A stretch of DNA of 32,000 nucleotides, from assembly GCF_000018105.1 (NCBI RefSeq), contig NC_009926.1, positions 30,001 to 62,000 of the forward strand, written 5' to 3'. The translations under genes were made by a program, and so were the position numbers. Below, piece after piece: positions 3,927 to 31,205 of the stretch (within the stretch, counting starts at the first letter, position 1; every line of letters begins with the position of its first letter). The notes under the pieces are model-generated. The model was given only the letters and a program-made list of their open reading frames with translations, was not told the origin of the DNA and did not search any database. The stretch is from Acaryochloris marina MBIC11017 (GTDB taxonomy: Bacteria; Cyanobacteriota; Cyanobacteriia; Thermosynechococcales; Thermosynechococcaceae).

Positions 3927-3958
3927 GGGAGGTTGCCTCTTATGGATCAGTAGTGCTG

Positions 3959-4783
3959 TTATTGCTGGGCGTAGTTGAGTAAGGTCTGGAGTTGGTCAGG
4001 AGAGATTTTGGCTAGCTTTGCTGCGTCTTCAGGAGACTTCCCCCAACGCATCTGGCGAATCATGCCGTTGACTCGCCAATGCATCTCTGAGCGATAGCGA
4101 TAGGTCTGGTTACCTGACGCTCTAGCGATATTCAGACCCCTTAAAAGAGTCGCTGGAGTGGTACGGCTATCGGACACGTTACGCTTAACCAGAGACAGGT
4201 TAGCCGTTGGGATAGGCTTTACCTTCTGAGGCAGGGAGATTCGTCGCACAGGAGGACGTTTGACGGTCTTAGGCTTGGGCAGGACTTTGGTTCTACGTTG
4301 AAGGGTCAGGGGTTGAACCGCTGTCGTAGCTTGATGAACGCGAGTCCTCTCAGGTGGTTGACCCAGGCGACCTGTGAAGACTCGCGATTGCTCAGGGGTA
4401 TGAGCAATGGGGGTGGGCGTTCCAATCCGAGTGATGGCAGTACTGGGGGCACTGTCAGACCGATTGATCGTTAACTCCATTGAGGAGCGGTTGCAGCCCA
4501 CTAAATCTAGGATTAAGTTGGTCGATTTCACCTGGGTATTGGGTTTCCAAGTCAGGTAAATTTTCTGGGTCTGGGGTTGGGGCTGATCTAAGCTCAAGTC
4601 AAAGATTCCCCTCGTGCCCATATAGGCTTTGGAGACCCGGCACCAACTGGAGGTAAGGTCAATCAGGTGACCATGACCCGGTGCTATCTTGATGGTTTCC
4701 GCTGTGGCTGGGGAAATGAACAGCCCCAACCAGGCCGCTATAAATGCGGCAATGGTTTTGTACATGGCGTTTTTCCTTGGCAA
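3959..4783 (-). CDS. Secreted protein, possibly with a VirB9/TrbG-like N-domain
   Basis: 274 aa with a signal peptide (MYKTIAAFIAAWLGLFISPATA/ET). The pattern IKIAPGHGHLIDL...KIYLTWKPNTQVKSTNLILDL recalls VirB9/TrbG N-domains, a weak by-eye call. A Pro/Arg/Thr-rich linker follows. Confidence 0.55.
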   Translation of the reverse strand: MPRKNAMYKTIAAFIAAWLGLFISPATAETIKIAPGHGHLIDLTSSWCRVSKAYMGTRGIFDLSLDQPQPQTQKIYLTWKPNTQVKSTNLILDLVGCNRSSMELTINRSDSAPSTAITRIGTPTPIAHTPEQSRVFTGRLGQPPERTRVHQATTAVQPLTLQRRTKVLPKPKTVKRPPVRRISLPQKVKPIPTANLSLVKRNVSDSRTTPATLLRGLNIARASGNQTYRYRSEMHWRVNGMIRQMRWGKSPEDAAKLAKISPDQLQTLLNYAQQ

Positions 4784-4847
4784 GTGCGTCTGTTCGGGAG
4801 GAGGGTTGCTATCAAAGACAGCCCCTCCCTGTGGTTGTTGGCTGGTG

Positions 4848-6065
4848 TCAGGGCCAGCCCCCTCTAAGGCAATCAGATATTGCTGCTAATGGTCTGTGGA
4901 TAAATCGGGTTACTGCTGGGCCGAATCCCAGATGTCCTCGCCCAATCGTTCCAGGCTCTCCCAGTCCACGGCATCGCTGATCCGCTGGGGAAGGTTGATA
5001 CCCCGGTCGATCAGTAGGCCCGTCACTGCGACCTCCACAAAGAACCAAAAGAGATTCCTGAGCATGGGTAATCACTCCTTTGACTAATGCAATAGCTTTG
5101 GTAGGAAGGGACTTTGTAGCGATGGAGGGAGTCTGGCGGGGATTGTGAGAATAAGCAGAAGGATTAGTACTGTTTTCGTAGCAGAAGGAAAGAGAAGCAG
5201 GCCAAGTGCTGAGGTTTACTCGCTCCTGACCTACTTCTGGCTTTGAGGAATATCTACTGAAACTTTGGGAAAATCCCAGTCGAACGGCTTTGACTTGACC
5301 TTGGGCTGCACTGACAAGCTGGGCCAAGCCAACCCGGAACCACTGCTTGAGGAGATGAACGGGGATTTGATACTTCGGTGGAATGAAAGGTGGAGGTGCT
5401 TTGATTAGGACGAGATTTGTCTTTGTCTCAGATACAACCTCGAAATCAAAGTACTCATCGTATTCTTCATCATCCGTGTAGAATGACTCGTCATTAATCG
5501 TAAATTCATGCCAGTCTGGGATTTCTTGGAACGAACGGCCCCAATAGAGTAAATCTTCGATATATTCCAGCTTTAGATTTGCTTTTTGAGCAATCTCTTC
5601 GAGGTTGGCATCAGGAAACTGGTTTTGGAGTCTATAAACCCTATCAAGATGGACTTGTTTTTTCTCGGGCAATCTCAGTTGCTTGGGTCTGTTCTTATAG
5701 CAAAATCTGCGGATATACCCTCTAATCCAACCTCTTGCATAGGTGGAGAACTTGCAGCCTTTCGTAGAGTCGAATTTCCTAACGGCATGACGGATGCCTA
5801 ACATTCCCTCTTGGATCAGGTCTTGAGCATCATCCAAAGTCCAGGCATATTGCTTGGCGAGTTTGGATACTAGACGGACATGCCCAATCATCAACCAGGA
5901 TAAAGAGGTTTCATGTCCTAGCTTGGCTTTGCGAATCAAGTCCAACTCTTCCTCTGGGTTGGGAACCGGGAAGCGGTGTAAGAGCTGGGTTAAATAGTCG
6001 GGTAAACGGATGCCCTCAGAAAAAGGGCTAGAAATCGAAGCGGCAGTCATAAGCTTGCCCTCCAC
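4848..6065 (-). CDS. Sigma-70-family-like protein with regions 2 and 3 only and a non-canonical C-terminal half
   Basis: LVSKLAKQYAWTLDDAQDLIQEGMLGIRHAVRKFDSTKGCKFSTYARGWIRGYIRRF matches sigma-70 regions 2.1-2.4. RLPEKKQVHLDRVYRLQNQFPDANLEEIAQKANL fits region 3. No region 4 HTH is recognisable. The last ~120 codons are Arg/Gly/Pro-rich and may not be genuinely coding. Confidence 0.65.
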   Translation of the reverse strand: MEGKLMTAASISSPFSEGIRLPDYLTQLLHRFPVPNPEEELDLIRKAKLGHETSLSWLMIGHVRLVSKLAKQYAWTLDDAQDLIQEGMLGIRHAVRKFDSTKGCKFSTYARGWIRGYIRRFCYKNRPKQLRLPEKKQVHLDRVYRLQNQFPDANLEEIAQKANLKLEYIEDLLYWGRSFQEIPDWHEFTINDESFYTDDEEYDEYFDFEVVSETKTNLVLIKAPPPFIPPKYQIPVHLLKQWFRVGLAQLVSAAQGQVKAVRLGFSQSFSRYSSKPEVGQERVNLSTWPASLSFCYENSTNPSAYSHNPRQTPSIATKSLPTKAIALVKGVITHAQESLLVLCGGRSDGPTDRPGYQPSPADQRCRGLGEPGTIGRGHLGFGPAVTRFIHRPLAAISDCLRGGWP

Positions 6066-12273: not shown

Positions 12274-13341
12274 TCATAGTTTTTTTAATGGCTGAGAGAT
12301 TGCTGACCAGGCAGTCAGAGCATCAGTGCAACGCTGAGGGTCAGACTCAGCACAATAGCAGAGGCAATATAGACTCTCCATCAAAATAAACAAGGAAGGA
12401 TCTGGAAGGTTAAGCATAACGACAGTATCATCAGCCTCTGTTGTTGTAGCGAGGCAATTTTCAATTATTTCTCGTAGATTTCTAAGATCAATATCCTCGC
12501 CATAAGAAGAATAAAAAGACAATGCATTCTTTGTATTTTCTGGTAGAGATTGCGGCCAATACTCTTGTGTGTCCAGAAAGATCATAAACAAGCCAATCTC
12601 AGAAGGTAAGAGCTTCTGGAATTTTTTAGAAGATGAATCACCACAAAATAAATAATGAGATTTTCCCAGCCTCCATATATCGCCATTCACAACCTTCTTG
12701 GGTTCAACGGTAAGCTGCTTTAAGTCAAGTTCACTAACTTGCTTTCTTTTTCGTTGCCTTTTTGTAGTATCTTTTTCATCTTGAAAAGATTTACCACCTA
12801 TTCTAGAGGTATCAATTAATCGGTTGTCCATGCCCCTTCGAAGCTTAGCGGGGCTGTCATTGCTATTTAGCTGCAGTTCGTTTCGAATTTTTCCTACAAA
12901 TGTGTTACTAACGCCACATCTCTTAGAGATTGCATTATCACTCCATAAACTCCACTCATGATCACGTATTAGTCTTTCTACGGATCGACGTTTATCCGCA
13001 TTGGTACGCCTTAAACCATGTACAGCGTTAGCTCCAACAGCAAATAATACAGCATCCCTCTGTGTTCCTAGTCGAACCTCAGCAACTATTTCCTTCGTGC
13101 CAAGACTTTCTCTTGCACGCACTCTATGAAAACCGTCAGCTAGCCAATATTCTTTACCATCATAATAAACAGTAACAGGTGGAAATTTTGCACCTTGTTG
13201 CATATCATCGGCATATTCAGCTACAACTTCTTCGTATAACTGGGAGCGAGGTTGAGTACCTCCATCCATACGTATTTTAGCTATCTCAACAGACTGGACA
13301 TTCGATTCAGTAGATATGCTAGTGGTTTGTTTGGAAGGCAT
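12274..13341 (-). CDS. ParB/Srx-fold (ParB-like nuclease N-domain) protein with an HTH and a degenerate DNA-methyltransferase-like C-terminal tail
   Basis: KFPPVTVYYDGKEYWLADGFHRVRARESLG is ParB-N box-like, followed by SKRCGVSNTFVGKIR (HTH-like). In the C-terminus, GDIWRLGKSHYLFCGDSSSKKFQKLL...LFMIFLDTQEYW mirrors the N-terminus of ParB-methylase fusions, but the DPPY motif is replaced by DTQEY and the tail is too short. Confidence 0.75.
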   Translation of the reverse strand: MPSKQTTSISTESNVQSVEIAKIRMDGGTQPRSQLYEEVVAEYADDMQQGAKFPPVTVYYDGKEYWLADGFHRVRARESLGTKEIVAEVRLGTQRDAVLFAVGANAVHGLRRTNADKRRSVERLIRDHEWSLWSDNAISKRCGVSNTFVGKIRNELQLNSNDSPAKLRRGMDNRLIDTSRIGGKSFQDEKDTTKRQRKRKQVSELDLKQLTVEPKKVVNGDIWRLGKSHYLFCGDSSSKKFQKLLPSEIGLFMIFLDTQEYWPQSLPENTKNALSFYSSYGEDIDLRNLREIIENCLATTTEADDTVVMLNLPDPSLFILMESLYCLCYCAESDPQRCTDALTAWSAISQPLKKL

Positions 13342-13471: not shown

Positions 13472-14029
13472 TTACATCCTTGAGGAGTTCCTCTTTTGCC
13501 CAATTTTGTGTGTATTGATGACTCTTCCATCTATCCCTCTTCGAGTTTTTGACTTCCAACCGTTGAAAGTGGGCGACAGTTGATGCCTGAGCTTTCCAAC
13601 GAAAGTATTGCTAACTCCACATTTCTTGGCAATTGCATTGTCACTCCATTGATTCCACTCAGAATCTTTTAATAGTCGCTCGACGACTCTTCGCTTGTCT
13701 TCGTTAGTACGTTGAAATCCATGAATTGTATTAGCTCCTGCTGAAAAAAGTATTGCATCACGACGAGAACCAAGCCAAACCTCTGCACAAATTATTGGTT
13801 GACCAATGCTCTCTTTAGCTCGAACACGGTGAAAACCATCAGCTAACCAATATTCAGCACCATCATAGAAAACAGTAACAGGGGGAAACTTAGCTCCCAG
13901 TTTCATGGCACCTGTATACTCCTGTACAACTGCCTGGTTGGTCTGCTTTCGAGGTTGAACCTCTTCGTCAAGGTTGATTTCCGATAAATCTAGATTAGTT
14001 ATAGAGCTATCAGACCTTATTAAGTACAT
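13472..14029 (-). CDS. ParB/Srx-fold protein, short paralog of 12274-13341
   Basis: 185 aa. KFPPVTVFYDGAEYWLADGFHRVRAKESIG...GANTIHGFQRTNEDKRRVVERLLKDSEWNQWSDNAIAKKCGVSNTFVGKLR is collinear with the neighbouring gene. Confidence 0.8.
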   Translation of the reverse strand: MYLIRSDSSITNLDLSEINLDEEVQPRKQTNQAVVQEYTGAMKLGAKFPPVTVFYDGAEYWLADGFHRVRAKESIGQPIICAEVWLGSRRDAILFSAGANTIHGFQRTNEDKRRVVERLLKDSEWNQWSDNAIAKKCGVSNTFVGKLRHQLSPTFNGWKSKTRRGIDGRVINTHKIGQKRNSSRM

Positions 14030-14399: not shown

Positions 14400-16973
14400 A
14401 TGAAATTATCGTTTGGAGAAGTACCAAAGAAACGTACTAAGCGGATTCTGAGAGCTATACTTACATTTGCCAATGGGAACAAACAGGTTAATTCTTACCG
14501 CTACTGTTTGAGCAATATTCAGATAGACAGGAGTGGTCCCAAGCAAGTGACGATAAAGGCTACTCTTAAGCAATTGGCAGAGTTAGTAAGCTACTCAGAT
14601 AAGTTGCATGTGGAGAGTAGCCCTGATCCACTTACTCAATGGAGTTTGCAGGAAGCTTTAGAGCATCTAAGACTTACACTCGGGGTATTTTCTGATATCC
14701 GCCAGAAACGTCAAGGCTCAAAGTACTGGGTATTCCGACTTGACTTATGGTTTGTCATTGAAGACCAAGTAGGTAATTTAGCAGAATTCGATCGTAAATG
14801 GGAACGTAAAAAAAACTTAGTATCATCCAAAAAGACTTCTACTTCTCAACTAGAAAATCATATTCCCTTTCAAGTTCTTGTTGATATACAAAACTTTGTC
14901 GGTCGTGAAGCAGAGCTAAAAAGTCTTGAAAATTTCTTAGTTTTCAACAAATCAGGAATAGCAATTGTTGGTATCTACGGTATGGGAGGAGTTGGTAAAA
15001 GTACTCTTGCTAAGCACTTTGCCCATCAATATCGAAAATCATTTCCTGATGGGGTTCTGTTTGCCGATCTCCGTATTCAAGAGCCTTCCGCACTCTTAGA
15101 GAGTTTTGCTAGAGCCTATAGTTGTGATCTCAACTCAACAATGAATATTTTGGATAAGGCAGAGCGTGTTCGTACAATCTTGTCTCAGAAGCGTTCTCTG
15201 TTGATACTTGATAATGCCAATGATTCAGAAATTCTTAATTATCTATTGCCAACATTTGGACAATGTTCAGTAATAGTTACTGCGCGTGACAAAGATATTG
15301 CTCCCCTCCAAGGGTTTCAAGAGTTAATTCTGGAACCATTCAGTAAGTCCGAGTCAATGGAGTTGCTAACTAAGTTAGTAGGTAGGGATAGAATTAAATC
15401 AGAAAACAATGAAGCAGTAAAAATCACCGAGATGTGTGGAAATCTGCCATTAGCGATTAATATATCTGGAAGTTTAATAAAATTTTCTTGCTGTAGTTTA
15501 AGTGATTATAGATTTAGTTTTGAAAATGAGCAACAAAAGCTAGATATTTTTGAGTGGCGTTCTCGCTCATTAAGATCTTCGTTTAATATCACATGGGATT
15601 TATTGGGTGAGACATTAAAGAGACTATTATCAACAACTTCAATTTTTGGAGGTTCTAGTATTGACATTGATGCACTATCAGTAATGTTAGATAAGAAACC
15701 GATTAAATTGCAATTGGAGATGGGAGGCTTAATCGCGGTATCCTTAGTTTATACTAATAAATCAAAACACTATAAGTTGCACCCACTAGTTAAAGAATTT
15801 GCAACTGAGAAGCTATTTGAAAGAGAATCAAATGAAGTAAATACTTTACATCTATGCCTGGCTAGATATTATCTAAGTTCTATTAAATCCGGTAAACTAA
15901 ACTATGATCATATCAACGATAATTATGGAAATATTATTGAAATAGTTTATTGGACATTTAAGAATTGCTACTTCAAGGAAGTTGTAGAGTTTGGTAATAT
16001 CATTGGAGACTTCCTTCTGTTTAAAGGGTATTGGAATGATGGTAATAACATACTAAGGAACACAATCTTTGCTTGCCAGCAGTTAGGGTACGCTCAAACT
16101 GAGTTCGAAATTCGCTTAAAGCTGAGTGAACTTGCTAGGGAACAGGCTGATTATGATCAAGCTCAGGAACAATACGAAGCTTGTAAGACTTTTTTTGAAG
16201 AGACGGATCAAAAATCGCAATTGGCAATTGTATTTCGTGAATTAGGCGAGCTTACACGAGTCCGGCGCAATTATTTACAAGCTCGCAAATTACATCAGAA
16301 AAGCCTCTTATTAAATATCGAACTGGACAATAAGAAAGGGGAAGCACAAAGCCTCCATGACTTAGGACTAATTGAACGTATATTTGGTGATTATAATCGA
16401 GCTATACAGCTTTTTGAACGTAGTTTAAAAATCCGTGAATCTCTTGGTGATTTATTAGGCATATCATATAATTATTTGGAACTTGGGATTATTGCTCGTC
16501 TAAAAAAGGATAAAAAGGCTATAGAGTTTCTAAGAAGTAGTTGTTTCGAGTTTGAAAGATTTGGAGATAAGCGTGGTCTAGCATATGTATTTCGTGAACT
16601 TGGAGAATTAGCTGTTGATGAAATGGATTATGTTGAAGCAGATAAGTTTCATAAGAAAAGCCTTCAATTGAGACAAGAACTTGGAGATCAACGGGGTAAA
16701 GCTATAAGCCTTTATAGAATAGGACGGCTCAATCAGCTTCAGAAAAATTATGAATTATCAAAGCAATACTTTTTAGATAGTATTGCTATTGCTAAAAAAC
16801 TAGACGATAAGCTACATAAAGCCTTTAACCTTGTTCGATTGGGTGAGCTTGCCAACCTTTCAGGGCAAAAGTCTTCAGCAATAGCTAATTGGAGACAAAG
16901 TCTAGAACTGTTTAATGAGATGCATGTTGCAGATCCTGAAGCAATTGAAGTTAAAGAGCTATTAATGAGTTAA
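14400..16973 (+). CDS. STAND NTPase: unassigned N-terminal domain (~170 aa) + NB-ARC + C-terminal TPR array
   Basis: P-loop GIYGMGGVGKSTLA, Walker B LLILDNANDSE, and GNLPLAI (the GxP/GLPL motif of NB-ARC). More than 6 TPR-like units are present (e.g. FRELGELTRVRRNYLQARKLHQKSLLLNIELDNKKGEAQSLHDLG). Confidence 0.85.
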   Translation: MKLSFGEVPKKRTKRILRAILTFANGNKQVNSYRYCLSNIQIDRSGPKQVTIKATLKQLAELVSYSDKLHVESSPDPLTQWSLQEALEHLRLTLGVFSDIRQKRQGSKYWVFRLDLWFVIEDQVGNLAEFDRKWERKKNLVSSKKTSTSQLENHIPFQVLVDIQNFVGREAELKSLENFLVFNKSGIAIVGIYGMGGVGKSTLAKHFAHQYRKSFPDGVLFADLRIQEPSALLESFARAYSCDLNSTMNILDKAERVRTILSQKRSLLILDNANDSEILNYLLPTFGQCSVIVTARDKDIAPLQGFQELILEPFSKSESMELLTKLVGRDRIKSENNEAVKITEMCGNLPLAINISGSLIKFSCCSLSDYRFSFENEQQKLDIFEWRSRSLRSSFNITWDLLGETLKRLLSTTSIFGGSSIDIDALSVMLDKKPIKLQLEMGGLIAVSLVYTNKSKHYKLHPLVKEFATEKLFERESNEVNTLHLCLARYYLSSIKSGKLNYDHINDNYGNIIEIVYWTFKNCYFKEVVEFGNIIGDFLLFKGYWNDGNNILRNTIFACQQLGYAQTEFEIRLKLSELAREQADYDQAQEQYEACKTFFEETDQKSQLAIVFRELGELTRVRRNYLQARKLHQKSLLLNIELDNKKGEAQSLHDLGLIERIFGDYNRAIQLFERSLKIRESLGDLLGISYNYLELGIIARLKKDKKAIEFLRSSCFEFERFGDKRGLAYVFRELGELAVDEMDYVEADKFHKKSLQLRQELGDQRGKAISLYRIGRLNQLQKNYELSKQYFLDSIAIAKKLDDKLHKAFNLVRLGELANLSGQKSSAIANWRQSLELFNEMHVADPEAIEVKELLMS

Positions 16974-18257: not shown

Positions 18258-18374
18258 TTAATGTCTTTCCAAAAAAATTACCATCTCAGCAACAAAACAA
18301 GCGATCGCACGTTTCTCCTGGGTATATCGCAGAGATTTCTCTAAGAGGATTCCTTGTATAGCGAAGTGATTCAT
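18258..18374 (-). pseudogene. ssb: Truncated ssb-like gene (first ~28 codons homologous to 23424-23744, then divergent and stopped)
   Basis: MNHFAIQGILLEKSLRYTQEKRAIACFV compares with MNTCAFQGILLEKSLRYTQERRAIAEFV. DNA similarity, including HIP1 GCGATCGCACG, ends near 18290, where AT-rich sequence begins. Confidence 0.7.
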
Positions 18375-18460
18375 AATTTCTGATTTTAAGGCTAGATTAA
18401 AGGCCCAGTAACGATTCGTGGAAAAAACTTTTACTTTCCCCAAAACCCAATTCTCTACAC

Positions 18461-18476
18461 TAGAATGGCCGCAAGT
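18461..18476 (+). promoter_or_regulatory. Conserved -10-like box plus leader TAGAATGGCCGCAAGT (cassette copy A)
   Basis: The same 16-mer with R/R variation recurs at 23832 and 29483, each 20-23 nt upstream of an ATG preceded by a GAGG/GGAG Shine-Dalgarno. Confidence 0.6.
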
Positions 18477-18496
18477 CCGATCCCAGGGAGGTTCTC

Positions 18497-19573
18497 ATGC
18501 CCTCTGCATCTATCGATAAGCTGAACCAGCTTAAAAGGCAGCTTCAGGATTGTATTAACCCCACTGCTGCCAAGCTACTCAAGAGTACGATTGCAAAGCT
18601 TGAAGCCCAGCTCAACTTAGGCCAGGACCAGATCGAGGTATCTAAGATAGACCAGATAAAGACAACTAACACGAATTCTTCCAAGGTAGCTCAACGGAAA
18701 GCTGCACACAAGAAATCAGAGAGGAAATCTAGGCAGAAGGCATCTCAAAAACAAAGAACAACGTTGAAAGCCCCTTCACTCAACAAAGTAGAGACAAAAC
18801 CATCAGTAATCTCTCAGAACAAGAAGCTCCCAATTCCAGCCCAGGAAAAGCCGCATGTTAAGACTGTAGACACTCCTAACAGTAAGAATTCAAATTCAAA
18901 AAATCAAAAACAAGCAAAGACAACATCAAAGTCAAAATCAGGTGAACTTTCCGAGAAACCTCCACTGCTCCCTGGAAATGGCACTCATCGGGCTTGGTGC
19001 CGTATTCCCGGAATTATTCGAGTACGAGAGAAGGAGTTTGAAGACGGGAGAACAAAGTCTCTGTATTTTGTGGAAGTTGATGGACAACCCATCAAACTCT
19101 TCCTATCGAAGAAGAGCTTTAAGAAAGTCAAGTCAGTTTTAGACAAACCAGTCATAGTGTTTGGTTATCCCAATATCATGAATGGTCAGATTACATCTTT
19201 GCAGTTAACAGGTACCTCGCAACGGGCATCAGCAAAGACAGAGAACTGGGTATTGATCGGAGTATGGAGAGCAGATAAGCAAAGGGTTTTGATACAGCGG
19301 GATCAGGAGCGCGACCCAGAGATTCATATCCGCCAGCATTCCCCGCTCGTGAGAGAGGACTGCCTGGAGAAGCTCAAGGATGGAAAGCTCTATGAGTTCA
19401 CCTGCCATAGAGATGGCGTTACCATCAAGGTTGTGGCTGTTGGAGAACGTTCAACGCAGAAGAGTAACGCTACTGAATCAACTGACCATGAAATCACTGA
19501 TCCAGAAATCAAAGATCAGGAAATCATTGACCAAGTCTTTTCTAAATTGGAGTCTTCCACTCTCCAGGTATGA
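18497..19573 (+). CDS. OrfX: uncharacterised protein (coiled-coil N-terminus, basic low-complexity linker, conserved ~190-aa C-domain)
   Basis: 358 aa, a paralog of 23870-24691. Shared blocks are MPSA[ST]IDKLNQLK, LLPGNGTHRAWCRIPGIIRV, W[VM][LM]IGVW, QR[VL]L[IV]QRDQ, QHSPLV[RK]E.CLEKL..GKLY. I recognise no known family. Confidence 0.75.
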   Translation: MPSASIDKLNQLKRQLQDCINPTAAKLLKSTIAKLEAQLNLGQDQIEVSKIDQIKTTNTNSSKVAQRKAAHKKSERKSRQKASQKQRTTLKAPSLNKVETKPSVISQNKKLPIPAQEKPHVKTVDTPNSKNSNSKNQKQAKTTSKSKSGELSEKPPLLPGNGTHRAWCRIPGIIRVREKEFEDGRTKSLYFVEVDGQPIKLFLSKKSFKKVKSVLDKPVIVFGYPNIMNGQITSLQLTGTSQRASAKTENWVLIGVWRADKQRVLIQRDQERDPEIHIRQHSPLVREDCLEKLKDGKLYEFTCHRDGVTIKVVAVGERSTQKSNATESTDHEITDPEIKDQEIIDQVFSKLESSTLQV

Positions 19574-20043
19574 TTGAATCTCGACCTTCCCTCAGCCTAA
19601 ACGTTCGACTAACCGAAGAGCAGCTTGGATTTCTCGACTATTTGTACCCCAATATTGATCCAGAAGATGCTTTGATCAGGATTCTTGAACGGGCTAGGAA
19701 CCGAGCTATCCGCAAGGCCGAACAGCAGGTACATATCTTACATCCACGCCAGGAAGAAGCCGAGCAACCTGAGACCTCCCCTGATCAGCCCATCAGCCAG
19801 GTTGATGAACAGGTGAAGAATCCGATTGGACAATTGCAAGAGCTTTGCCAGAAACAGCAAATATCGTTGCCCAGGTACGAGTTTTCAGAGATATCAGAAG
19901 GGTTTCGTTGTTTAGTACAGTCGATGGGATTACAGGGAGTAGGCGAGGGAGCATCGAAGAAGAAAGCGAAGATGGGGGCTGCGGAGATGTTGTTGAAGAG
20001 AGCAGAGGAAGGTCTATGTCACATTTCACCCTCTAAAGGCTAA
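19570..20043 (+). CDS. RHH (CopG-like) + dsRBD-like fusion protein
   Basis: The N-terminus SLNVRLTEEQLGFLDYLY..PEDALIRILERARNRAIRKAE has a strand-helix-helix pattern. An acidic linker follows. The C-terminus NPIGQLQELCQKQQISLPRYEF..FRCLVQSMGLQGVGEGASKKKAKMGAAEMLL fits the dsRBD consensus. The start overlaps the OrfX stop (ATGA). Confidence 0.75.
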   Translation: MIESRPSLSLNVRLTEEQLGFLDYLYPNIDPEDALIRILERARNRAIRKAEQQVHILHPRQEEAEQPETSPDQPISQVDEQVKNPIGQLQELCQKQQISLPRYEFSEISEGFRCLVQSMGLQGVGEGASKKKAKMGAAEMLLKRAEEGLCHISPSKG

Positions 20044-20155
20044 GGATGCGATTTTGAAGTGATGTGAACATTAAATTTATTTTTCGATTAAAGAAAAGCA
20101 AATTTCTTCATGGAAGAATTAAGACATACCTCTGAGCAAGTAATAGCATCATTCT

Positions 20156-20434
20156 GTGAACAATTTAGTCATATTCCCAGGACAATCTTCATCTGAAATA
20201 TATTTGTCGAATCCGAGTTCTTTTAGGGAGGCTAAAGAAGCGGCACATTGCTTGAAGAACGGACAACTGCTACTCGTCAATTTAGAAAATCTATCTCCAA
20301 AGTCGGCCCAGAGAATAAGTGATTATCTTGCAGGTTGTACTAACTCTTTATGTGGTGAATATACAGAAGTAGGAAATGGTGTTCATCTGTTTGCTCCTCA
20401 AACTTTTCCAATTGTGAAACAATCCAAGTATTGA
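20156..20434 (+). CDS. sepF: SepF-like (DUF552 core domain only) protein
   Basis: IYLSNPSSFREAKEAAHCLKNGQLLLVNLENLSPKSAQRISDYLAGCTNSLCGEYTEVGNGVHLFAPQTFPI is collinear with the SepF core as I recall it ([62 protein letters not shown]). It has a GTG start, no membrane-targeting N-helix, and the start is uncertain. Confidence 0.7.
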   Translation: MNNLVIFPGQSSSEIYLSNPSSFREAKEAAHCLKNGQLLLVNLENLSPKSAQRISDYLAGCTNSLCGEYTEVGNGVHLFAPQTFPIVKQSKY

Positions 20435-20461
20435 GACTTTAGTGCATTTGAGGATTCCCCA

Positions 20462-21013
20462 ATGACTCCCCCAATCGTCGCCCTCAACCCCAAGCCCGTA
20501 CCCAAGACCATCCCACAACTACCTAAGTCCGTCCCTTCCGCACCCAAACTGGTTAGTAGGACAGCATTTCCTAAGAAAACACCGGAAGGAACCCGGCCAG
20601 CAAAGCTAGAACAAGGGCATGAGGAGCTGGGAGGACTACGCCGGAGTTTTAGGCGTCCTTCTCAATCAACTAAACCTGAGTTCACTCCTAAGACACGATC
20701 CTCAGAAGCTCCCCAGGTCAATCAACCGAGAACCCCTAGAGTGTCGGCAGAGCTGGAGAGGCGATTCAGGAATCTGGAGCTGAAGCAGAAGAATCTGGTG
20801 GAGCAGACCAGGACGCGAGGGGAGCTGGAGTATCTGGCTGTTTCCAAAAATAGCTCAGGGAGATACTGGATTACAGTGGCGGGAACGGGGAAGCCCTTTG
20901 TGAGGAATACGTTTGCTTCGGCTGAGTTCAGTTGGGGAATCGATGTTGAGATTGAAGGCAAATTTGAGAATGGATATATGATTGAGCTCTGCCCATTGAA
21001 GACAATGAACTAG
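20462..21013 (+). CDS. OrfY: hypothetical protein with a Pro/Lys/Arg-rich disordered N-half and a compact C-domain
   Basis: 183-aa ORF with no recognised motif. A frameshifted paralog fragment lies at 27642-27879. Confidence 0.6.
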   Translation: MTPPIVALNPKPVPKTIPQLPKSVPSAPKLVSRTAFPKKTPEGTRPAKLEQGHEELGGLRRSFRRPSQSTKPEFTPKTRSSEAPQVNQPRTPRVSAELERRFRNLELKQKNLVEQTRTRGELEYLAVSKNSSGRYWITVAGTGKPFVRNTFASAEFSWGIDVEIEGKFENGYMIELCPLKTMN

Positions 21014-21041
21014 GTTCAGTAGATAATATAAAATTTCCAAC

Positions 21042-22799
21042 TTATGTATCCACTGAATAGCCTTCAAACCAAATGGAACGTTGTGGAAAAGGTATTGTAA
21101 TATTCGCCTGATCAAAGGCTTGTTTCAAACGACGTCGGTACTCTCGCCCCACATCCCAATGTTTCATTGGTTGGGTCTTAATGAGTATACGGATTGTTAT
21201 ACTGCTTTCCCCAAAGGCATCTACCCCTAAGATAGTTGGAGTTTCATTGATCAAAACTCCCCAAATAGGATCATGTTGTAGTTTAATTGCAACTTCTTCA
21301 ATCACTGCCATTGCTTGATCTAAGTCAGTGGAATAGGCTACCTCAATCCCTAGATTAATCCGGGACCATTGGTGAGTCAGGTTGATAGCAGTGGAAAAAC
21401 TACCATTGGCAATCGTGACAAGTTCACCTTCTAAAGTCCTCAACTGAGTAACTCGAAGGTTGAGATACTCAACTAATCCGACAATGCCATTGATTTTGAC
21501 TACATCATTCTTCGTGTATTGATCCTCCCAGAGAATCAGAAAACCATTGATAAAGTCCTTAATCAGATTCTGAGCACTTAACCCTACAATTCCTATGCCT
21601 GTTAGGACCAGTGCTAGTGGTGCTTGAATTGCATCCAGAAACATTAGAATGCCAATAATGATTACGACATAGCGTGTAACTTCCTGCAATACATTGGTTA
21701 TGGTGGGAGTTCTAAGAGTAATACGTTGGTTAGGTGTATGGTTAAAGGCATCATTCTCAGACCATCGATGCAACCCATAAACAATCAGAATATCAATGAT
21801 TTTTTTTGAAATACTTAGAACTAAGAGAATGCCAATAAAGCTGACAGGTACACCTACTAACCAAAGACCTGCTTGACGAGTTTGAGGAAATAACAGTAAT
21901 GCAAATATTGCAAAGCTCAACCAAATAGCTACTTGACTCCACCACAATAGAGATCGTAACGTTAGATTGATATTTTTTTGTTGCGGCAATGAAAGCTTTG
22001 GCAAGTGTTTTCTAATTGGGTGACCAATTGTTGTCTCCTGATAAGACTCAATGGAAGTCTGTCCATCAGGAAAATCATTATTTTGTGTTGTTGATGGATT
22101 TTTGATGTTTTTGGAATTAAGTTGTGTCCATTGGTGCTTGAGCAGAATTTGCAGATACCTCAGAATTAGGCTAATGATAATTACCGCTACCAAAATAATC
22201 AAAAGGTAAAAAAGTTGTTGCTTTAAATGCTCAGGCTGACGCTCTCTGTTCGCTTCTAAAAGTGCAGATTTGATCTTACTGGCCTTTACTTTTGCAATTT
22301 CAGAAATTGAGTAAGATGTACTATCAATTTGACGGTCTAGCTCTGTGATGGTCATAAGGGGTAGTTTCCAGTCTTTCCCCTGAGCGATTATCACTTCTTG
22401 GTTATTTAAGGTACTGGCTGTAACTCTAAGGGCATTAGGGTCAATACCACTATTTACGATTTTTTCTAAGTGGGTTTCAATTTCATTTACTCGCCATTCA
22501 ATGGGCAAGATATTGCTTTGACTGTCGGGATCATCAATCGCTGTGGGTGCAGCGACTTGAAATAGTGACACACCATCAAGGCGCACATTAGCAATGTGCA
22601 TATTGCCACGCTGGATGTAGTGAATATTAGGTTGCCGATTTGAACTCGTGTCAAGATGAGAGAAGCTGGGAAACTGGGCATGGGCTAATGACGGCCAGAA
22701 GTAGCTCATTCCGCAAATAAGGCAGCCGACGATTCCTGTAAGAAAGAATCTTGATAAACGCTGTAACTTTCTAGGATACATAGCTATGGTCAGTACCAC
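21042..22799 (-). CDS. MscS-family mechanosensitive ion channel
   Basis: 585 aa with multiple TM helices. The MscS core is IKDFINGFLILWEDQYTKNDVVKINGIVGLVEYLNLRVTQLRTLEGELVTIANGSF. Confidence 0.85.
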   Translation of the reverse strand: MVLTIAMYPRKLQRLSRFFLTGIVGCLICGMSYFWPSLAHAQFPSFSHLDTSSNRQPNIHYIQRGNMHIANVRLDGVSLFQVAAPTAIDDPDSQSNILPIEWRVNEIETHLEKIVNSGIDPNALRVTASTLNNQEVIIAQGKDWKLPLMTITELDRQIDSTSYSISEIAKVKASKIKSALLEANRERQPEHLKQQLFYLLIILVAVIIISLILRYLQILLKHQWTQLNSKNIKNPSTTQNNDFPDGQTSIESYQETTIGHPIRKHLPKLSLPQQKNINLTLRSLLWWSQVAIWLSFAIFALLLFPQTRQAGLWLVGVPVSFIGILLVLSISKKIIDILIVYGLHRWSENDAFNHTPNQRITLRTPTITNVLQEVTRYVVIIIGILMFLDAIQAPLALVLTGIGIVGLSAQNLIKDFINGFLILWEDQYTKNDVVKINGIVGLVEYLNLRVTQLRTLEGELVTIANGSFSTAINLTHQWSRINLGIEVAYSTDLDQAMAVIEEVAIKLQHDPIWGVLINETPTILGVDAFGESSITIRILIKTQPMKHWDVGREYRRRLKQAFDQANITIPFPQRSIWFEGYSVDT

Positions 22800-23011
22800 A
22801 TTCTCCTGCTTCTACTTATCCTTAGGTTACAGTCTCATATATGCTCAACATCCCCACTTTTCAGCCATCTTCCAGACTGACCATCCGCCTCGCTTCGGAC
22901 TTTGCAGCAAGATTTCTTGAGTTCTCCTAGAATCCAGGCCATAGCTTGGATTAGCTCTTTTTTATGGGTAGAATTTAATACAGAGACCTATCTTTTGTAG
23001 GCTTTGCAGAA

Positions 23012-23423: not shown

Positions 23424-23744
23424 TTACTGATTAATCTGGACCGTGGAGTCGGTTGATCTTATCAACGACAAGGCTAGCCTGCTGCTCCACATATTCCTCG
23501 TTGCCGTCTTATGAGTGACTTTGTTTATCCTCAGTTGACCTTGCAAAATGAGTTGGTCGCCAGCTTGTAATGCATTGTGTGCTTTCTCCCCATTTTCTCC
23601 CCAATAGATGGCCTTGAGATTTTCCCTGGGGTCTTCTTCCCTCAGAGGGTTAATTTCAACGACGAATTCCGCGATCGCACGTCTTTCCTGGGTATATCGC
23701 AGGGATTTCTCCAGGAGTATTCCTTGGAAAGCACAAGTGTTCAT
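23424..23744 (-). CDS. ssb: SSB-like OB-fold protein (no acidic C-terminal tip)
   Basis: MNTCAFQGILLEKSLRYTQERRAIAEFVVEI...LKAIYWGENGEKAHNALQAGDQLILQGQLRINKV follows the cyanobacterial SSB N-terminal OB pattern. The C-terminus is atypical. Confidence 0.65.
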   Translation of the reverse strand: MNTCAFQGILLEKSLRYTQERRAIAEFVVEINPLREEDPRENLKAIYWGENGEKAHNALQAGDQLILQGQLRINKVTHKTATRNMWSSRLALSLIRSTDSTVQINQ

Positions 23745-23831
23745 AATTCATTGATTATTAGCCTGGGCATGCACTGTGTGACGTTTTCTGGCGATAATCC
23801 CGAATTTAACCCAAAGACCAACTTCATATCT

Positions 23832-23847
23832 TAGAATAGCCGCAAGT
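23832..23847 (+). promoter_or_regulatory. Conserved -10-like box plus leader TAGAATAGCCGCAAGT (cassette copy B)
   Basis: See 18461-18476. It lies 22 nt upstream of the ATG at 23870. Confidence 0.6.
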
Positions 23848-23869
23848 TTGCTCCTAGCGAGGTTCTCCC

Positions 23870-24691
23870 ATGCCCTCAGCAACTATCGACAAGCTCAACC
23901 AACTCAAAGTTCAGCTTGAGCAGTGCAACAATGACACTGCTGCTCTACTCCTAAAACGGACGATTGCAAAACTCGAATCTCAACTCCAGAGAGAGCAGCT
24001 TACAACACAGTCTGCCAAGTTGACTCCACAAGAACCGCCAAAAACCTCCCAGACTATTTTCAAACAACAATCTTCAGTCCAGGATAAGAAAGTAGTACCT
24101 CAACAACAGCAGACCACAAAAAATCTTCAGGCAAAATCCAAGCAGCGAAACCATCGCAAAAAGAGACGGCCTCTGCTCCCTGGCAATGGCACCCATCGTG
24201 CCTGGTGCAGGATTCCAGGAATCATCCGAGTTCAGGAAGCGGAAGCGGAGGCAGAACAGCCAGTATATTTCATAGAAATGGATGGTCATCAGCTCTCTTT
24301 GAGAGTAAAGAAGCGCTTCAGAAAATTGATAGGAGCGTCATTGGATACTCCTTTGATGGTGAAATGCTACCCTCAAATCATTGAAGGTCAAATTGTTTTC
24401 TTGCAGTTTTGTGGTGCTGCTGAATCGGCCCCTGAGACCCCAGAAGACTGGGTGATGATTGGGGTGTGGAATTCAGAGAATCAGAGAGTCTTAGTACAGC
24501 GTGATCAGAGATGCGATCAGAGCAGGCGCATCCTTCAACATTCTCCGCTAGTGAAAGAGGCATGTTTGGAGAAACTGGAGGGTGGAAAGCTTTATCGGTA
24601 TCAATGTCAGAGAGAGGGATTCACCGTGACGATCGTGGGTGTGGAGGTTGTTGAGGGTGAGGAAGGGGAAATTGTTCAGAAAGCCTCATAG
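23870..24691 (+). CDS. OrfX paralog (273 aa)
   Basis: Collinear with 18497-19573 but with a shorter Gln-rich linker. The conserved C-domain blocks are as listed for copy A. Confidence 0.75.
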   Translation: MPSATIDKLNQLKVQLEQCNNDTAALLLKRTIAKLESQLQREQLTTQSAKLTPQEPPKTSQTIFKQQSSVQDKKVVPQQQQTTKNLQAKSKQRNHRKKRRPLLPGNGTHRAWCRIPGIIRVQEAEAEAEQPVYFIEMDGHQLSLRVKKRFRKLIGASLDTPLMVKCYPQIIEGQIVFLQFCGAAESAPETPEDWVMIGVWNSENQRVLVQRDQRCDQSRRILQHSPLVKEACLEKLEGGKLYRYQCQREGFTVTIVGVEVVEGEEGEIVQKAS

Positions 24692-24742
24692 CTCTGAAAA
24701 ACCATTGAGCTATGAGATCAGATTCCATTATTCAAATTAGCT

Positions 24743-25012
24743 CTACCAACGATTTCCACCTCCTCTGTTCTCACGGGGTCTGGCTTTATTCACTTTCAGA
24801 GTGCGTCCCATCCATTCAGCACCCTCTAGCTCATCGATAGCTTTAGCTTCTTCAGCATCATTACCCATTTCGACAAAGGCGAATCCACGCTTGCGTCCTG
24901 TTTCTCGATCAGTAGGCATCTTGACCTGTTTGACAGTTCCATATTCAGCAAAAACGGCGTTTAGGTCTTGTTCTGTAGCATCAAAGGAGAGGTTACCAAC
25001 GTAAATCGACAT
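24743..25012 (-). CDS. rbp: RRM-type RNA-binding protein (cyanobacterial Rbp family)
   Basis: MSIYVGNLSF (RNP2) and KRGFAFVEM (RNP1), with a Gly-rich tail RENRGGGNRW. I chose the start at the internal Met (MSIYVGNL) of the track ORF. Confidence 0.9.
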   Translation of the reverse strand: MSIYVGNLSFDATEQDLNAVFAEYGTVKQVKMPTDRETGRKRGFAFVEMGNDAEEAKAIDELEGAEWMGRTLKVNKARPRENRGGGNRW

Positions 25013-25255
25013 GAAGTAATATCCAAGATTAATCATGCTCATGCTACCCGATCTCTATTTCCCCTTTAGGAGTAGAAAGCAATCTTTATGGAGATCATAG
25101 AATCGGAGAGGCAGTTTATGAATAGGACATGATTAAGGGACTTCAGTTAAATGTTGGGAGCTTAGCATCCATCAACCCCAATGCGTGACCCAAATTTTTT
25201 TGGTGATAGTGCTTTATCGCAAATCTTAGCTAAACACGTTTCATTTGGAGGTTCT

Positions 25256-25555
25256 ATGTCATCTTCTATCAATCAAGGTATATTGGTCACTGTCATTTGC
25301 GAAGCGGTTTTACAGCATCGTATCGTTCAATTACTAGATACTGTGGGTGCTTCAGGGTACACCATTATTCCAGCTCAAGGTGCTGGGAGTTATGGTCAGC
25401 GGATGGGAGATATTGAAGGGTTTAATACCAATATTCAAGTGAAAACAATTGTCTCACTAGAGGCATCTGATCAGATACTTGAGGATCTGCAGCAATACCG
25501 TGAATCACATGCACTGATCGCATTTCGACAACAAGTGGATGGATTATTTGATTAG
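25256..25555 (+). CDS. PII-like (GlnB-superfamily fold) small signalling-type protein
   Basis: ILVTVICEAVLQHRIVQLLDTVGASGYTIIPAQGAGSYGQRMGD...NIQVKTIVS fits the PII-like pattern. The start is at the internal ATG preceded by GGAGG. Confidence 0.55.
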   Translation: MSSSINQGILVTVICEAVLQHRIVQLLDTVGASGYTIIPAQGAGSYGQRMGDIEGFNTNIQVKTIVSLEASDQILEDLQQYRESHALIAFRQQVDGLFD

Positions 25556-25562
25556 GTTATTA

Positions 25563-25606
25563 ACATCCTCTCCTACTAACCTTTCAGGTACAGAGGGAGA
25601 GGATGT
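25563..25606 (+). terminator. Stem-loop with an 11-bp perfect stem (ACATCCTCTCC / GGAGAGGATGT), 8 nt after the PII-like stop
   Basis: Read directly. The loop is 22 nt and no U-tract follows, so intrinsic-terminator function is uncertain. Confidence 0.45.
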
Positions 25607-25727
25607 CAACTATACCCCAACGAAGATCTAGAAGACTGCCTGATCAAGCTTCTAGAGTGAGCCAAGAGACAATCCATCCGACGAGCAGAACAACAAACGA
25701 GGGTCTTTTATCTTGGTCATTTAAAAA

Positions 25728-28771: not shown

Positions 28772-29482
28772 AGACTCCTTCAAATAAAAAGTAGGCAAAA
28801 AAGCTACTTGGGAGGAAGGGATAAAAGCTGTAACACTTTCTACTAATAGAGCAATAAGCATAATTGAGGATTAAAGCTTGGCTCTATTTCCAGTGATATT
28901 AGCGACCTCAAGAAGAAGAATATTTTTAAATGCTTAGCATGTCAGTCTAAAACGGCAAGGAAAAAGTGAAAATTATGTAGAAGACAGTGATACGCTATAT
29001 GGAAAAATATGTAATTAAGTAGAATAGAAAGATATAAGATTTATTCTCTCAATATACGTAAATAATTTTAAATCATATTCTTATGAATAAGCTTATTCAG
29101 CTAGTGATCTAAATATAGACACCAGTTAGAATTCTTGCTAGATTGAGATTTATCCCAATAGAGTAGTCAGTAGCTAAGTTAATTTACGTTTTTTACTTCA
29201 TGATTTTAGCCTTTTCATTCTGTTATAAAAATAGATAAATGGAGAATTGTTAAAAAGATTTGTAGACTTTTTAGATAGTCAGTATTTAGCAAGTATAAAG
29301 ACAGATAACTAGGGATTGATTAAAGTCGGTTTAACTAAGAAATTATCTCATAGACTTTATCTTATAGAATTGCTTAAAAGGTACAGTAGCTCATAATAAT
29401 CCCAATCTTAAACCTTGGTTAAAGAGTAAGTGATGTTTATTAGTAAAGACCTCGTTCTTTCTCAACTTTGAAGTCTCTGCAT

Positions 29483-29498
29483 TAGAATAACCGCAAGT
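29483..29498 (+). promoter_or_regulatory. Conserved -10-like box plus leader TAGAATAACCGCAAGT (cassette copy C)
   Basis: See 18461-18476. It lies 22 nt upstream of the ATG at 29521. Confidence 0.55.
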
Positions 29499-29520
29499 CT
29501 GCATCTATGGAGCTTCCTCC

Positions 29521-29559
29521 ATGCTCTCTGTGACTATCGAAAAGCTCAAAATAGATTTG
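29521..29559 (+). pseudogene. Remnant of the OrfX N-terminus (13 codons), read through into unrelated sequence
   Basis: MLSVTIEKLKIDL compares with MPSATIDKLNQLK, and similarity ends after about 13 codons. The 148-aa track ORF 29521..29967 is therefore probably chimeric. Confidence 0.4.
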
Positions 29560-29742
29560 ACATTCTCGCGTGTTGACCGCAAGATAGGATACCCAGCCTT
29601 AAGTGCATGCGCTCAATATCGAGCAAACTATAGGGTCGAAGAAAGTTGTTCGACACTAACTGGTTTGATCAAAGAGGGCGTCAATTTTCGTGCTTATTTT
29701 TTGTATATAGACCATCGATACCGACCTCACTGTTGTTCAAGG

Positions 29743-29967
29743 ATGACCGAATTTATGTCTACGACGATTAGCATTCTGGCTGGTATCCCTGAGGAGCTTC
29801 ATGAGACGTTGATAAATTACTTGGAAGACCATCCTGATTGGGATCAAGATCGGGTTTTCTCAGCGGCACTATCATTATTTCTGATGCAGTACGGTCAATC
29901 AGACCGTAGGACAGCTCGTGTTTATCTGGATAGTCTATTTAAGAAAGATTTGCCAACCGCTTGTTAA
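29743..29967 (+). CDS. Small conserved cyanobacterial protein (DUF2811-like, identified from memory)
   Basis: MTEFMSTTISILAGIPEELHETLINYLEDHPDWDQDRVFSAALSLFLMQYG. The internal ATG is at 29743 (or 29755). The stop TAA overlaps the next ATG (TAATG). Confidence 0.5.
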   Translation: MTEFMSTTISILAGIPEELHETLINYLEDHPDWDQDRVFSAALSLFLMQYGQSDRRTARVYLDSLFKKDLPTAC

Positions 29968-30440
29968 TGCCGACCCCCCAGCCAATCTCCAGTCTAACCA
30001 TCCACCTCACCTCTGAACACCTTGGCTTCCTCGCCTATCTCTACCCCAAAGAAGATCCAGAAGACGCACTGATCAAGCTCCTCGATAGTGCCCGAACCCG
30101 AGCCATTCGCAGAGCAGAACAGCAAGTGAGAGTCCTTCATCTAGACCAGGAAGAACCCGAGGCCCCCGAGGAAGACCCCGAGGAACCCGTGAACTTGTCT
30201 GGTGATGTGGTGGAGAATCCGATTGGGACATTGCAGGAGTTGTGTCAACGGCAGCAAATCTCTATGCCCAGCTATGAGTTTGAGACAATACCAGAAGGAT
30301 TTCGCTGTTCAGTGCAGGCGATGGGCTTGCGGGGAGTTGGTGAGGGGGTGTCGAAGAAGAAAGCGAAGATGGGGGCTGCGAGGAAATTGTTGGGAAGGGG
30401 TTGTTTTGGGATGGATAGAGAATCCCAGCAATCAGAATAA
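29967..30440 (+). CDS. RHH + dsRBD-like fusion protein, paralog of 19570-20043
   Basis: SLTIHLTSEHLGFLAYLYPKEDPEDALIKLLDSARTRAIRRAEQQV, then an acidic linker, then NPIGTLQELCQRQQISMPSYEF..FRCSVQAMGLRGVGEGVSKKKAKMGAARKLL. Confidence 0.75.
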   Translation: MPTPQPISSLTIHLTSEHLGFLAYLYPKEDPEDALIKLLDSARTRAIRRAEQQVRVLHLDQEEPEAPEEDPEEPVNLSGDVVENPIGTLQELCQRQQISMPSYEFETIPEGFRCSVQAMGLRGVGEGVSKKKAKMGAARKLLGRGCFGMDRESQQSE

Positions 30441-31205
30441 ATTAGGATTCATAAAGTCGTCGAGAGACCAATCTTTATGGGAATTATCTAGTACCCGAAC
30501 ACTATTTTTATCCATTCCCTCATTGACCACCTTAGAACGAACTCTTTTAGGCTTTACTTGAATCCCAAATTGATTAAGCCAAGAAATATCTAGCTCCCAT
30601 TCATACTTGCTTCTTTTGATCCAAACCTGAAACTGGTCATCGACATATTTTTGGGTTTTAGGCATCGTCCAGTGGTTGACTTTAGCGAGATGCTGATCAG
30701 CAATCTCTCCTCTACCCTTTACATTAGCTAAACCCCTGTGTTTGACCTCATGACAGGATGGGCAAAGAGCGATTAACCCTTCCAACTTTTGGATATGCTG
30801 GTCATCATCGTAGTGCCAAATTTCGTGACATTCAACAGGGTGCTTGGGTCCACGCCCACCACAAACCTCACAGCGATTATTAGCCTTCTCATATGTCATT
30901 TTCCTTAGCTCATTCCAATCCTCTTTACTCACTTCAGAACGAACATTAGAGAACCAGCAGGATCGAGGGACTAATTCAATAGTCAATAATTGGCGTGGCT
31001 TAGCTTTCCCTTCTTTAGTGTTCTTCGCTTCAATCAGCCCTTGGCTTCTAAGGGATTCCATCACATCAACTAAGCCCAGTGGTTTGCATTGATAATATAA
31101 CCACCCTGGTTGATACCCCTTTGCTTTACGCTTAGCTTCCAACTCCAAAACCCGGTCGGTATCCAGAGTAGAAAATTTAGATAAATTAGGTTTTTCTGAT
31201 TGCAT
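30432..31205 (-). CDS. HNH-motif endonuclease-like protein
   Basis: CEVCGG...ECHEIWHY...LIALCPSCHEVKH is a Cys4/His HNH zinc-finger pattern. Its 3' end overlaps the convergent dsRBD gene by 9 nt. Confidence 0.7.
   Translation of the reverse strand: MQSEKPNLSKFSTLDTDRVLELEAKRKAKGYQPGWLYYQCKPLGLVDVMESLRSQGLIEAKNTKEGKAKPRQLLTIELVPRSCWFSNVRSEVSKEDWNELRKMTYEKANNRCEVCGGRGPKHPVECHEIWHYDDDQHIQKLEGLIALCPSCHEVKHRGLANVKGRGEIADQHLAKVNHWTMPKTQKYVDDQFQVWIKRSKYEWELDISWLNQFGIQVKPKRVRSKVVNEGMDKNSVRVLDNSHKDWSLDDFMNPNLF

Follow-up and report, generated by a model that had tools for sequence, protein, structure and literature searches.

A plasmid-borne cyanobacterial protein family joining a predicted ribbon-helix-helix-like domain to a double-stranded RNA-binding domain

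What might a bacterial plasmid do with a protein that carries a double-stranded RNA-binding domain (dsRBD) and no nuclease? The question is raised by a 157-residue gene at 19570..20043 (+) in a 32,000-nucleotide stretch of Acaryochloris marina MBIC11017 (NC_009926.1, positions 30,001 to 62,000), referred to here as the window. A first-pass annotation had read the product as a CopG-type ribbon-helix-helix (RHH) module joined by an acidic linker to a dsRBD, and had proposed that it could link transcription control to the sensing of sense/antisense RNA duplexes. The open reading frame (ORF) encodes exactly the protein sequence quoted there. Our own answer is that the gene would encode a dimeric binder of double-stranded RNA (dsRNA), possibly also an operator binder, that acts in plasmid RNA control. 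Taken as a whole, we hold this answer tentatively, at somewhat less than an even chance.

The gene (copy 1, ATG start) is supported by its ORF, a Pfam match, homologs and an AlphaFold2 model. A paralog of the same architecture lies, as first reported, at 29967..30440 (+) (copy 2; 157 residues from the ATG, or 159 from a TTG at 29961). The two proteins are 64% identical over 144 residues with 0 gaps (E 3e-59). A third copy survives as a dead remnant at 25610..25717 (+), which covers only the latter half of the N-terminal domain and is broken by an in-frame stop. The ATG of copy 1 overlaps the stop codon of the preceding 358-residue ORF (ATGA), and the start of copy 2 overlaps that of its own preceding ORF (TAATG, 29965-29969). 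These overlaps suggest that both copies are translationally coupled to the ORFs before them. More than 40 homologs of the family were found. In seven intact copies (the two from the window and five others), Nei-Gojobori ratios of non-synonymous to synonymous substitution (dN/dS) were low in the N-terminal domain (0.07-0.28) and the dsRBD (0.07-0.36) and reached higher values in the linker between them (0.2-1.2), all approximate figures with dS often saturated. Both domains are under purifying selection, which is relaxed in the linker, and copies 1 and 2 are real genes rather than chance ORFs.

We assessed the C-terminal half by Pfam, AlphaFold2, Foldseek and alignments, and it is almost certainly a true dsRBD, as had been claimed (residues 84-151; 19819..20022, +). 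The Pfam dsrm family (PF00035) scored 25.5 bits in both window copies against a gathering cut-off of 23, spanning residues 85-143 in copy 1 and 87-144 in copy 2, and scored 26.9 bits in a distant family member at locus L015. An AlphaFold2 monomer model, built on a 19-sequence family alignment, gave the alpha-beta-beta-beta-alpha fold with a predicted local distance difference test score (pLDDT) of 88-95 over residues 85-145. Its elements were alpha1 at 85-95, strands at 102-108, 111-118 and 121-127, and alpha2 at 130-151. When the dsRBD model was searched against the PDB with Foldseek, dsRBDs alone were returned at probability 1.00, including R2D2 dsRBD1, Xlrbpa-dsRNA and the RNase III of Aquifex and E. 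coli. Template modelling (TM) scores to solved dsRBDs were 0.84-0.88, with root mean square deviations (rmsd) of 1.0-1.7 Å; the best match was R2D2 dsRBD1 (TM 0.88, rmsd 1.0 Å). The RNase III catalytic domain is absent, again as proposed. Neither window copy had a Ribonuclease_3 Pfam match, and the NCBIfam RNase III model TIGR02191 aligned at positions 148-218 only, with 26 bits against a cut-off of 166.

Judging by its motifs, the dsRBD is probably RNA-binding (type A). Residues Q90, E91, K130, A133 and K134 were invariant throughout the family, also in members at 35-40% identity, and RNA-contact regions 1 (the alpha1 Q/E of LQE) and 3 (KKxAK at the start of alpha2) were intact. Weighing against RNA binding, the beta1-beta2 loop, which forms the canonical contact region 2 (GPxH), was shortened and had no His. 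The shortening had been noted at the outset; by hidden Markov model alignment the loop was approximately 5 residues shorter than in Loqs/TRBP-type dsRBDs and R2D2 dsRBD2, and resembled that of R2D2 dsRBD1. A short loop without the minor-groove His would suit a type-B (protein-interaction) dsRBD; on that view the protein would sit on DNA, serve as an adaptor for the machinery of partition or replication and have nothing to do with RNA. The position of the gene immediately upstream of parA-parB in six loci would suit this too. We nevertheless regard such an adaptor as distinctly improbable. The alpha1 Q/E and KKxAK residues, invariant here, are usually lost in dsRBDs that do not bind RNA. R2D2 dsRBD1 has the same short loop and is found in a small-RNA-duplex complex (entry title of 7v6c), and the par loci already encode ParB and need no extra centromere-binding protein.

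A dsRBD-like fold is also seen in HicA toxins, and their HicB antitoxins frequently include an RHH domain. The protein might thus belong to a HicAB-related toxin-antitoxin system, with the dsRBD-like part a HicA-type mRNA interferase and the RHH part autoregulatory, either in one chain or together with dn183. The latter gene (20462..21013, +; C-terminal ~95 residues conserved) is a recurrent downstream neighbour of family genes, and the family gene resembles addiction modules in being carried on plasmids, in several copies and often in decay. Several results nonetheless make this very improbable. There was no HicA_toxin Pfam match at E<=1, whilst dsrm passed its cut-off, and an invariant His was found nowhere in the dsRBD. 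The canonical LQE and KKxAK motifs that contact the RNA backbone were retained, and the nearest structures were true dsRBDs at 30-35% identity. PADLOC gave no match for the family gene or its neighbours, and copy 2, like the Thermosynechococcaceae branch, lacks an adjoining dn183.

The closest relatives of the dsRBD among solved structures were animal proteins. A family dsRBD profile matched the R2D2 dsRBD1 domain best (E 5.6e-12), followed by Loquacious, TRBP and RDE-4, and was much weaker against E. coli RNase III (E 6e-5) than against these Dicer-partner dsRBDs. Either an ancient transfer or convergent shortening of the loop could account for this closeness; strains of Acaryochloris are frequently associated with ascidians. 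A word-indexed search with the dsRBD alone returned family members and no other dsRBDs. In a viral structure library the matches were eukaryotic-virus dsRBDs only, and a two-domain relative was not found.

The N-terminal half was harder to place. The domain (residues 8-57; 19591..19740, +), described from AlphaFold2, a tandem model and alignment, consists of a strand (8-14), a helix (16-25), a P-N-x-D-P turn and a second helix (31-57), and is read as an RHH-like module for dimerisation and possibly DNA binding. The AlphaFold2 monomer showed coil over residues 1-15 and helices at 16-25 and 31-57, the latter long, at a pLDDT of 84-90. Because a monomer cannot show an intermolecular ribbon, we folded a tandem construct of N-domain, native linker and N-domain, taken from both window copies. 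Residues 8-14 and 91-97 turned into strands in this model (pLDDT 81-86; predicted TM score 0.58). They were its sole strands and therefore pair with each other. In the family alignment, strand positions L10, I/V12 and L14 were hydrophobic and conserved, whilst positions 9, 11, 13 and 15 were polar and variable. Such alternation fits a DNA-facing ribbon whose specificity may differ between paralogs. The models thus favour an RHH-like dimer as the most likely fold, a reading that we consider moderately probable; membership of the RHH superfamily is plausible, if unproven. Binding of an operator by the predicted ribbon is possible and rather doubtful.

Several observations count against this reading of the N-terminal domain. 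The tandem model was an artificial fusion folded with a two-sequence alignment, which may bias it towards pairing. Its top Foldseek matches in the PDB, F-plasmid relaxosome chains of 110-118 residues and VirC2, favour the reading in being single-chain RHH proteins and were non-significant (E 0.7-2.8, TM 0.35-0.52, rmsd ~10 Å). The relaxosome chains are probably TraY, which fits their lengths; F TraY holds a whole RHH dimer within one polypeptide (10.1101/2024.12.19.629322). Scans of the N-terminal domains of 17 close and 10 divergent members matched no Pfam family at E<=10, whether RHH or other, and PDB profile searches with the domain gave no sequence match, solved RHH proteins included. Comparison with CopG by hhalign, using a CopG sequence checked against 1b01, gave a probability of 2.6-3.9%; the alignment, in the expected register, extended from the strand no further than the beginning of helix A. 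The turn between the helices (P27-N28-x-D30-P31) was nearly invariant and differs from the usual RHH turn, G-x-S/T/N. Direct or inverted operator-like repeats were not found in three homologous upstream regions. The earlier assignment to CopG/RHH is thus partly supported, by the predicted topology and the ribbon of the tandem model, and fails in profile searches, the test that the first-pass annotation had itself named as a refutation.

Two side observations touch on this domain. A relationship to DUF2811, which has a similar pattern and occurs in neighbouring genes, was considered and rejected (hhalign probability 0.6%). At locus L014, a 107-residue ORF directly downstream of a ParA gene (1889-2212, -) has a textbook RHH-looking end (TTVYLPKDLHKKFKVTAMNEETEMSDIMIALIEQWL), suggesting a ParG-type centromere-binding protein. 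This ORF also had no Pfam match, showing that RHH modules easily escape profile searches.

Whatever its fold, the N-terminal domain is rare and exclusive to this architecture. An exhaustive HMMER search of 1.84 billion representative proteins found 28 with the domain, essentially all of them members of the same family or truncated calls, the weakest having a different, repeated architecture. Every complete match to the N-terminal profile also carried a dsRBD. The combination is therefore as unusual as the first-pass annotation supposed. The two domains are joined by an acidic linker, also as described, which is rich in Pro and Gln and predicted to be disordered (residues 58-83; 19741..19818, +; pLDDT 35-37 in AlphaFold2).

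Many copies of the gene were truncated, interrupted or frameshifted, including one frameshifted Acaryochloris copy. Several copies next to par genes had a damaged N-terminal domain (L016 7202-7636, L021 5358-5813, L022 2272-2625 and L023 1188-1541), with an in-frame TAG or a truncation in that domain whilst the linker and dsRBD remained open. In such copies dsRBD-only products may also be made, or they may simply be decaying. Two copies, on plasmids pMB07 (L003 3440-6020) and pMB01 (L006 1-2520) of Acaryochloris sp. 'Moss Beach', each carried an antisense group II intron that interrupts the gene at one shared codon. It separates 'LTIHLTP' from 'LGFLAYLY', within the predicted junction of the strand and helix A. 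In L003 the intron comprised an Rfam RF00029 match at 3491-3569 (-) and a reverse transcriptase ORF at 3605-5332 (-). The shared site points either to homing of the intron into this conserved position or to duplication after the disruption had occurred.

The damaged copies indicate that the gene is dispensable in some settings, at least where it is multi-copy, and this tells against a firm role in plasmid RNA control. The dead fragment in the window and the frameshifted, stop-interrupted, truncated or intron-split copies elsewhere are also what would be expected if the gene were a passenger of the repeated plasmid cassette, a duplicate without function that is falling into decay. Such an explanation is highly unlikely: in the seven intact copies dN/dS was well below 1 in both domains and not in the linker, and the two-domain architecture was kept down to 35% identity in other cyanobacterial families.

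Where the family occurs is consistent with a plasmid function. It was found in Acaryochloris, other Acaryochloridaceae, Thermosynechococcaceae and one Kovacikia genome bin, and only in these. All 12 of the 12 matching PLSDB records were Acaryochloris plasmids, with 1-3 places matched in each, and the longest contigs with family members were plasmid-sized. The family is on a plasmid wherever the replicon is known. The window itself is most likely Acaryochloris marina plasmid DNA, its positions 18304-23000 being 98% identical to plasmid pREC3 of strain MBIC10699.

The genes around family members differed between lineages. On other Acaryochloris plasmids the commonest downstream neighbour was a dn183 homolog. 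In Thermosynechococcaceae and Kovacikia, the gene lay immediately upstream of one for a ParA-type ATPase, usually followed by ParB (L012, L015, L016, L021, L022 and L023), and in L014 and L018 it adjoined a convergent par locus. Genes for RRM proteins were also nearby. Because the Acaryochloris and Thermosynechococcaceae branches have different neighbours, no one conserved partner indicates a pathway, a further point against assigning the family a specific role.

One of these neighbours bears directly on the main rival to our proposal. A protein of approximately 640 residues with an RNB (RNase II-type) domain (246 bits) and a C-terminal dsRBD (34.8 bits), itself an unusual architecture, was encoded near several family genes. 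Its gene abutted the family gene in L014 (102-1358) and lay 1-3 kb upstream in L015 (1699-3636), L016 (2588-4519), L020 (3122-4904) and L021 (2734-4650); the beta1-beta2 loop of its dsRBD was shortened as in the family studied here. The N-terminal domain might therefore be a dimerisation handle only, with no DNA binding, and the protein a pure dsRNA cofactor or competitor. As a cofactor it would recruit or guide the neighbouring RNB-dsRBD exoribonuclease to duplex RNA, in the manner of the inert dsRNA-binding partners of Dicer; as a competitor it would shield plasmid RNA duplexes from host RNase III. The resemblance to Dicer-partner dsRBDs, the adjacent or nearby RNB-dsRBD gene with its matching short loop in five loci, the failure to find operator-like repeats upstream and the lack of a sequence signature of DNA-binding RHH families all favour this explanation. 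We still judge it rather less likely than not. The RNB gene was absent from the window and from most of the Acaryochloris loci examined, and L015, L016 and L021 are closely related, so the linkage represents few independent cases. A DNA-specificity surface would also be expected to look like the predicted ribbon face, with its variable polar residues.

Our preferred reading is of a dimer that binds RNA duplexes. The N-terminal ~60 residues would dimerise through an intermolecular beta-ribbon in RHH fashion, with an acidic, flexible tether of ~25 residues linking this module to the dsRBD. The homodimer would present two dsRBDs and could bind A-form RNA duplexes of at least about two helical turns, independently of sequence. 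Candidate targets are plasmid sense/antisense RNA pairs that control replication, partition or addiction genes; overlapping sense/antisense transcripts at rep genes have been proposed for large cyanobacterial plasmids in the discussion of one study (PMC10899382). The beta-ribbon may additionally bind an operator on the plasmid. We infer the dimerisation, the dsRNA binding, any DNA binding and the biological target alike, and a role in plasmid RNA control is a possibility that we place just short of evenly balanced.

A stronger version of the dimer model would make the protein a plasmid repressor, in which a DNA-bound RHH dimer uses its two dsRBDs to read sense/antisense duplexes, or R-loop-like A-form hybrids, at its own control region. 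If true, a 157-residue repressor would couple antisense-RNA control of copy number or partition to promoter occupancy. We consider this improbable. Bolder still is a rider to the repressor model by which the dsRBD was transferred between the ascidian-associated Acaryochloris lineage and eukaryotes. The original proposal that the protein links transcription control to duplex sensing found no direct support, the upstream regions having yielded no operator repeats.

In the window, the family gene is part of a cassette present in three copies, laid out as an SSB gene on the reverse strand, an intergenic region of ~120 bp, an up358/o273-family gene and the dsRBD gene. Across the three cassettes, the intergenic regions aligned over ~160 bp. 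A promoter-like leader motif, TAGAATnnCCGCAAGTC, lies just upstream of the first ATG of each cassette (18461-18477, 23832-23848 and 29483-29499, +); these were its 3 sites in the window, a number that no shuffle out of 100 reached. Cassette 1 (18267-21013) is complete but for a decayed SSB gene (remnant at 18267-18374) and continues into a SepF-like gene and dn183. In cassette 2 (23424-25717) the SSB gene (23424..23744, -), divergent from o273, and o273 itself are retained and the dsRBD gene is dead. Cassette 3 (29390-30440) keeps the conserved start region of the SSB gene and has a DUF2811 domain in place of most of the o273-type gene.

The upstream operon partner of copy 1, up358 (18497..19573, +), encodes a protein found only in Acaryochloris. 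Its paralog o273 (23870..24691, +; 43% identical) heads cassette 2, and a homolog search with o273 returned only Acaryochloris hypothetical proteins. Upstream of copy 2 lies a chimeric ORF (29521..29967, +) made of an o273-type N-terminal remnant (MLSVTIEKLK) and DUF2811. A DUF2811 gene recurs close to family members, at this position in the window and at L008 279-491 and L020 5884-6096. Downstream of copy 1 is a gene for a small protein like the cell-division adaptor SepF (20156..20434, +; PF04472, 67.5 bits), and another plasmid SepF-like gene was seen near a dsRBD gene in Acaryochloris at L007 8756-9037. For up358, o273 and dn183 there were no matches in Pfam, NCBIfam, PHROGs or PADLOC. No structured RNAs or tRNAs were found in the window.

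Further from the cassettes, a gene for a ParB-like partition protein (12274..13341, -) lies ~6 kb upstream of copy 1, with equal placement on pREC3. It is accompanied by a gene for a 185-residue paralog of its N-terminal half (13472-14029, -; 57% identical). No ParA-type ATPase was seen among the scanned window ORFs. Between the ParB-like gene and the cassette, a STAND-type NTPase with EAD4, an effector-associated domain, at its N-terminus, an NB-ARC domain and TPR repeats (14400-16973, +) is likely a conflict or defence protein. A gene for a 257-residue HNH endonuclease (30432-31205, -; phrog_5200, E 5.8e-55) is convergent with copy 2 and shares its last 9 nt; the protein had weak matches to the HNH regions of IscB and ZorE.

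RefSeq already annotates the dsRBD of the family, under the names 'putative dsRNA-binding protein' and 'double-stranded RNA binding motif domain-containing protein'. Neither fold is of a new kind; the apparent novelty lies in joining the two, in a rare and exclusive N-terminal domain, in the plasmid location of every family gene with a known replicon, and in the association with par loci and an RNB-dsRBD nuclease. We found no description of the family in literature on RHH plus dsRBD, DUF2811, Acaryochloris plasmid dsRNA or cyanobacterial dsRBDs. To our knowledge, bacterial proteins with a true dsRBD outside RNase III are almost unstudied. The family offers a compact, nuclease-free example, in 1-3 copies on the matched Acaryochloris plasmids and at partition loci in relatives. 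Should it indeed bind RNA duplexes, it would add a protein component to the antisense-RNA control proposed for large cyanobacterial plasmids in the discussion cited above (PMC10899382), and would parallel, in bacteria, the Dicer-partner proteins of eukaryotes. The N-terminal domain represents a very rare fold family and is small enough for quick structural and binding tests. Engineering of stable multi-plasmid cyanobacterial hosts is a possible practical use.

Comparison with known systems places the family between several of them. With RNase III and the eukaryotic dsRBDs of R2D2, Loquacious, TRBP and Xlrbpa it shares the fold and the LQE and KKxAK motifs; the short beta1-beta2 loop is held in common with R2D2 dsRBD1, and the absence of a nuclease domain with the Dicer-partner proteins. 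It differs from this group in being encoded on bacterial plasmids and in carrying one dsRBD only, which is preceded by a private strand-helix-helix domain where others have an RNase III domain or further dsRBDs. Among RHH proteins of the MetJ/Arc/CopG group (CopG, ParG, omega, TraY and VirC2), the likeness lies in the predicted order and lengths of strand and helices, the hydrophobic/polar alternation of the strand and the plasmid setting near par genes; the tandem model further predicts a ribbon, and its best fold matches, though non-significant, fall on probable TraY chains and VirC2. The family differs from them in its lack of profile similarity, its P-N-x-D-P turn and a helix B of ~27 residues. 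Its C-terminal effector is a dsRBD, which we did not find described for RHH proteins. HicA and HicB also bring a dsRBD-like fold and an RHH module to mobile DNA, a pairing that the family may share, but they do so as two separate proteins, and the dsRBD-like one is an RNase that depends on a His, whereas here one chain carries a canonical dsrm signature. Rop/Rom of ColE1, which is dimeric, and FinO of F are known examples of small plasmid proteins whose ligands are RNA-RNA complexes or structured antisense RNAs and which thereby tune copy number or transfer. Their folds (a four-helix bundle and the FinO/ProQ domain) are unrelated to those of the family, and they offer a functional analogy for the role proposed here.

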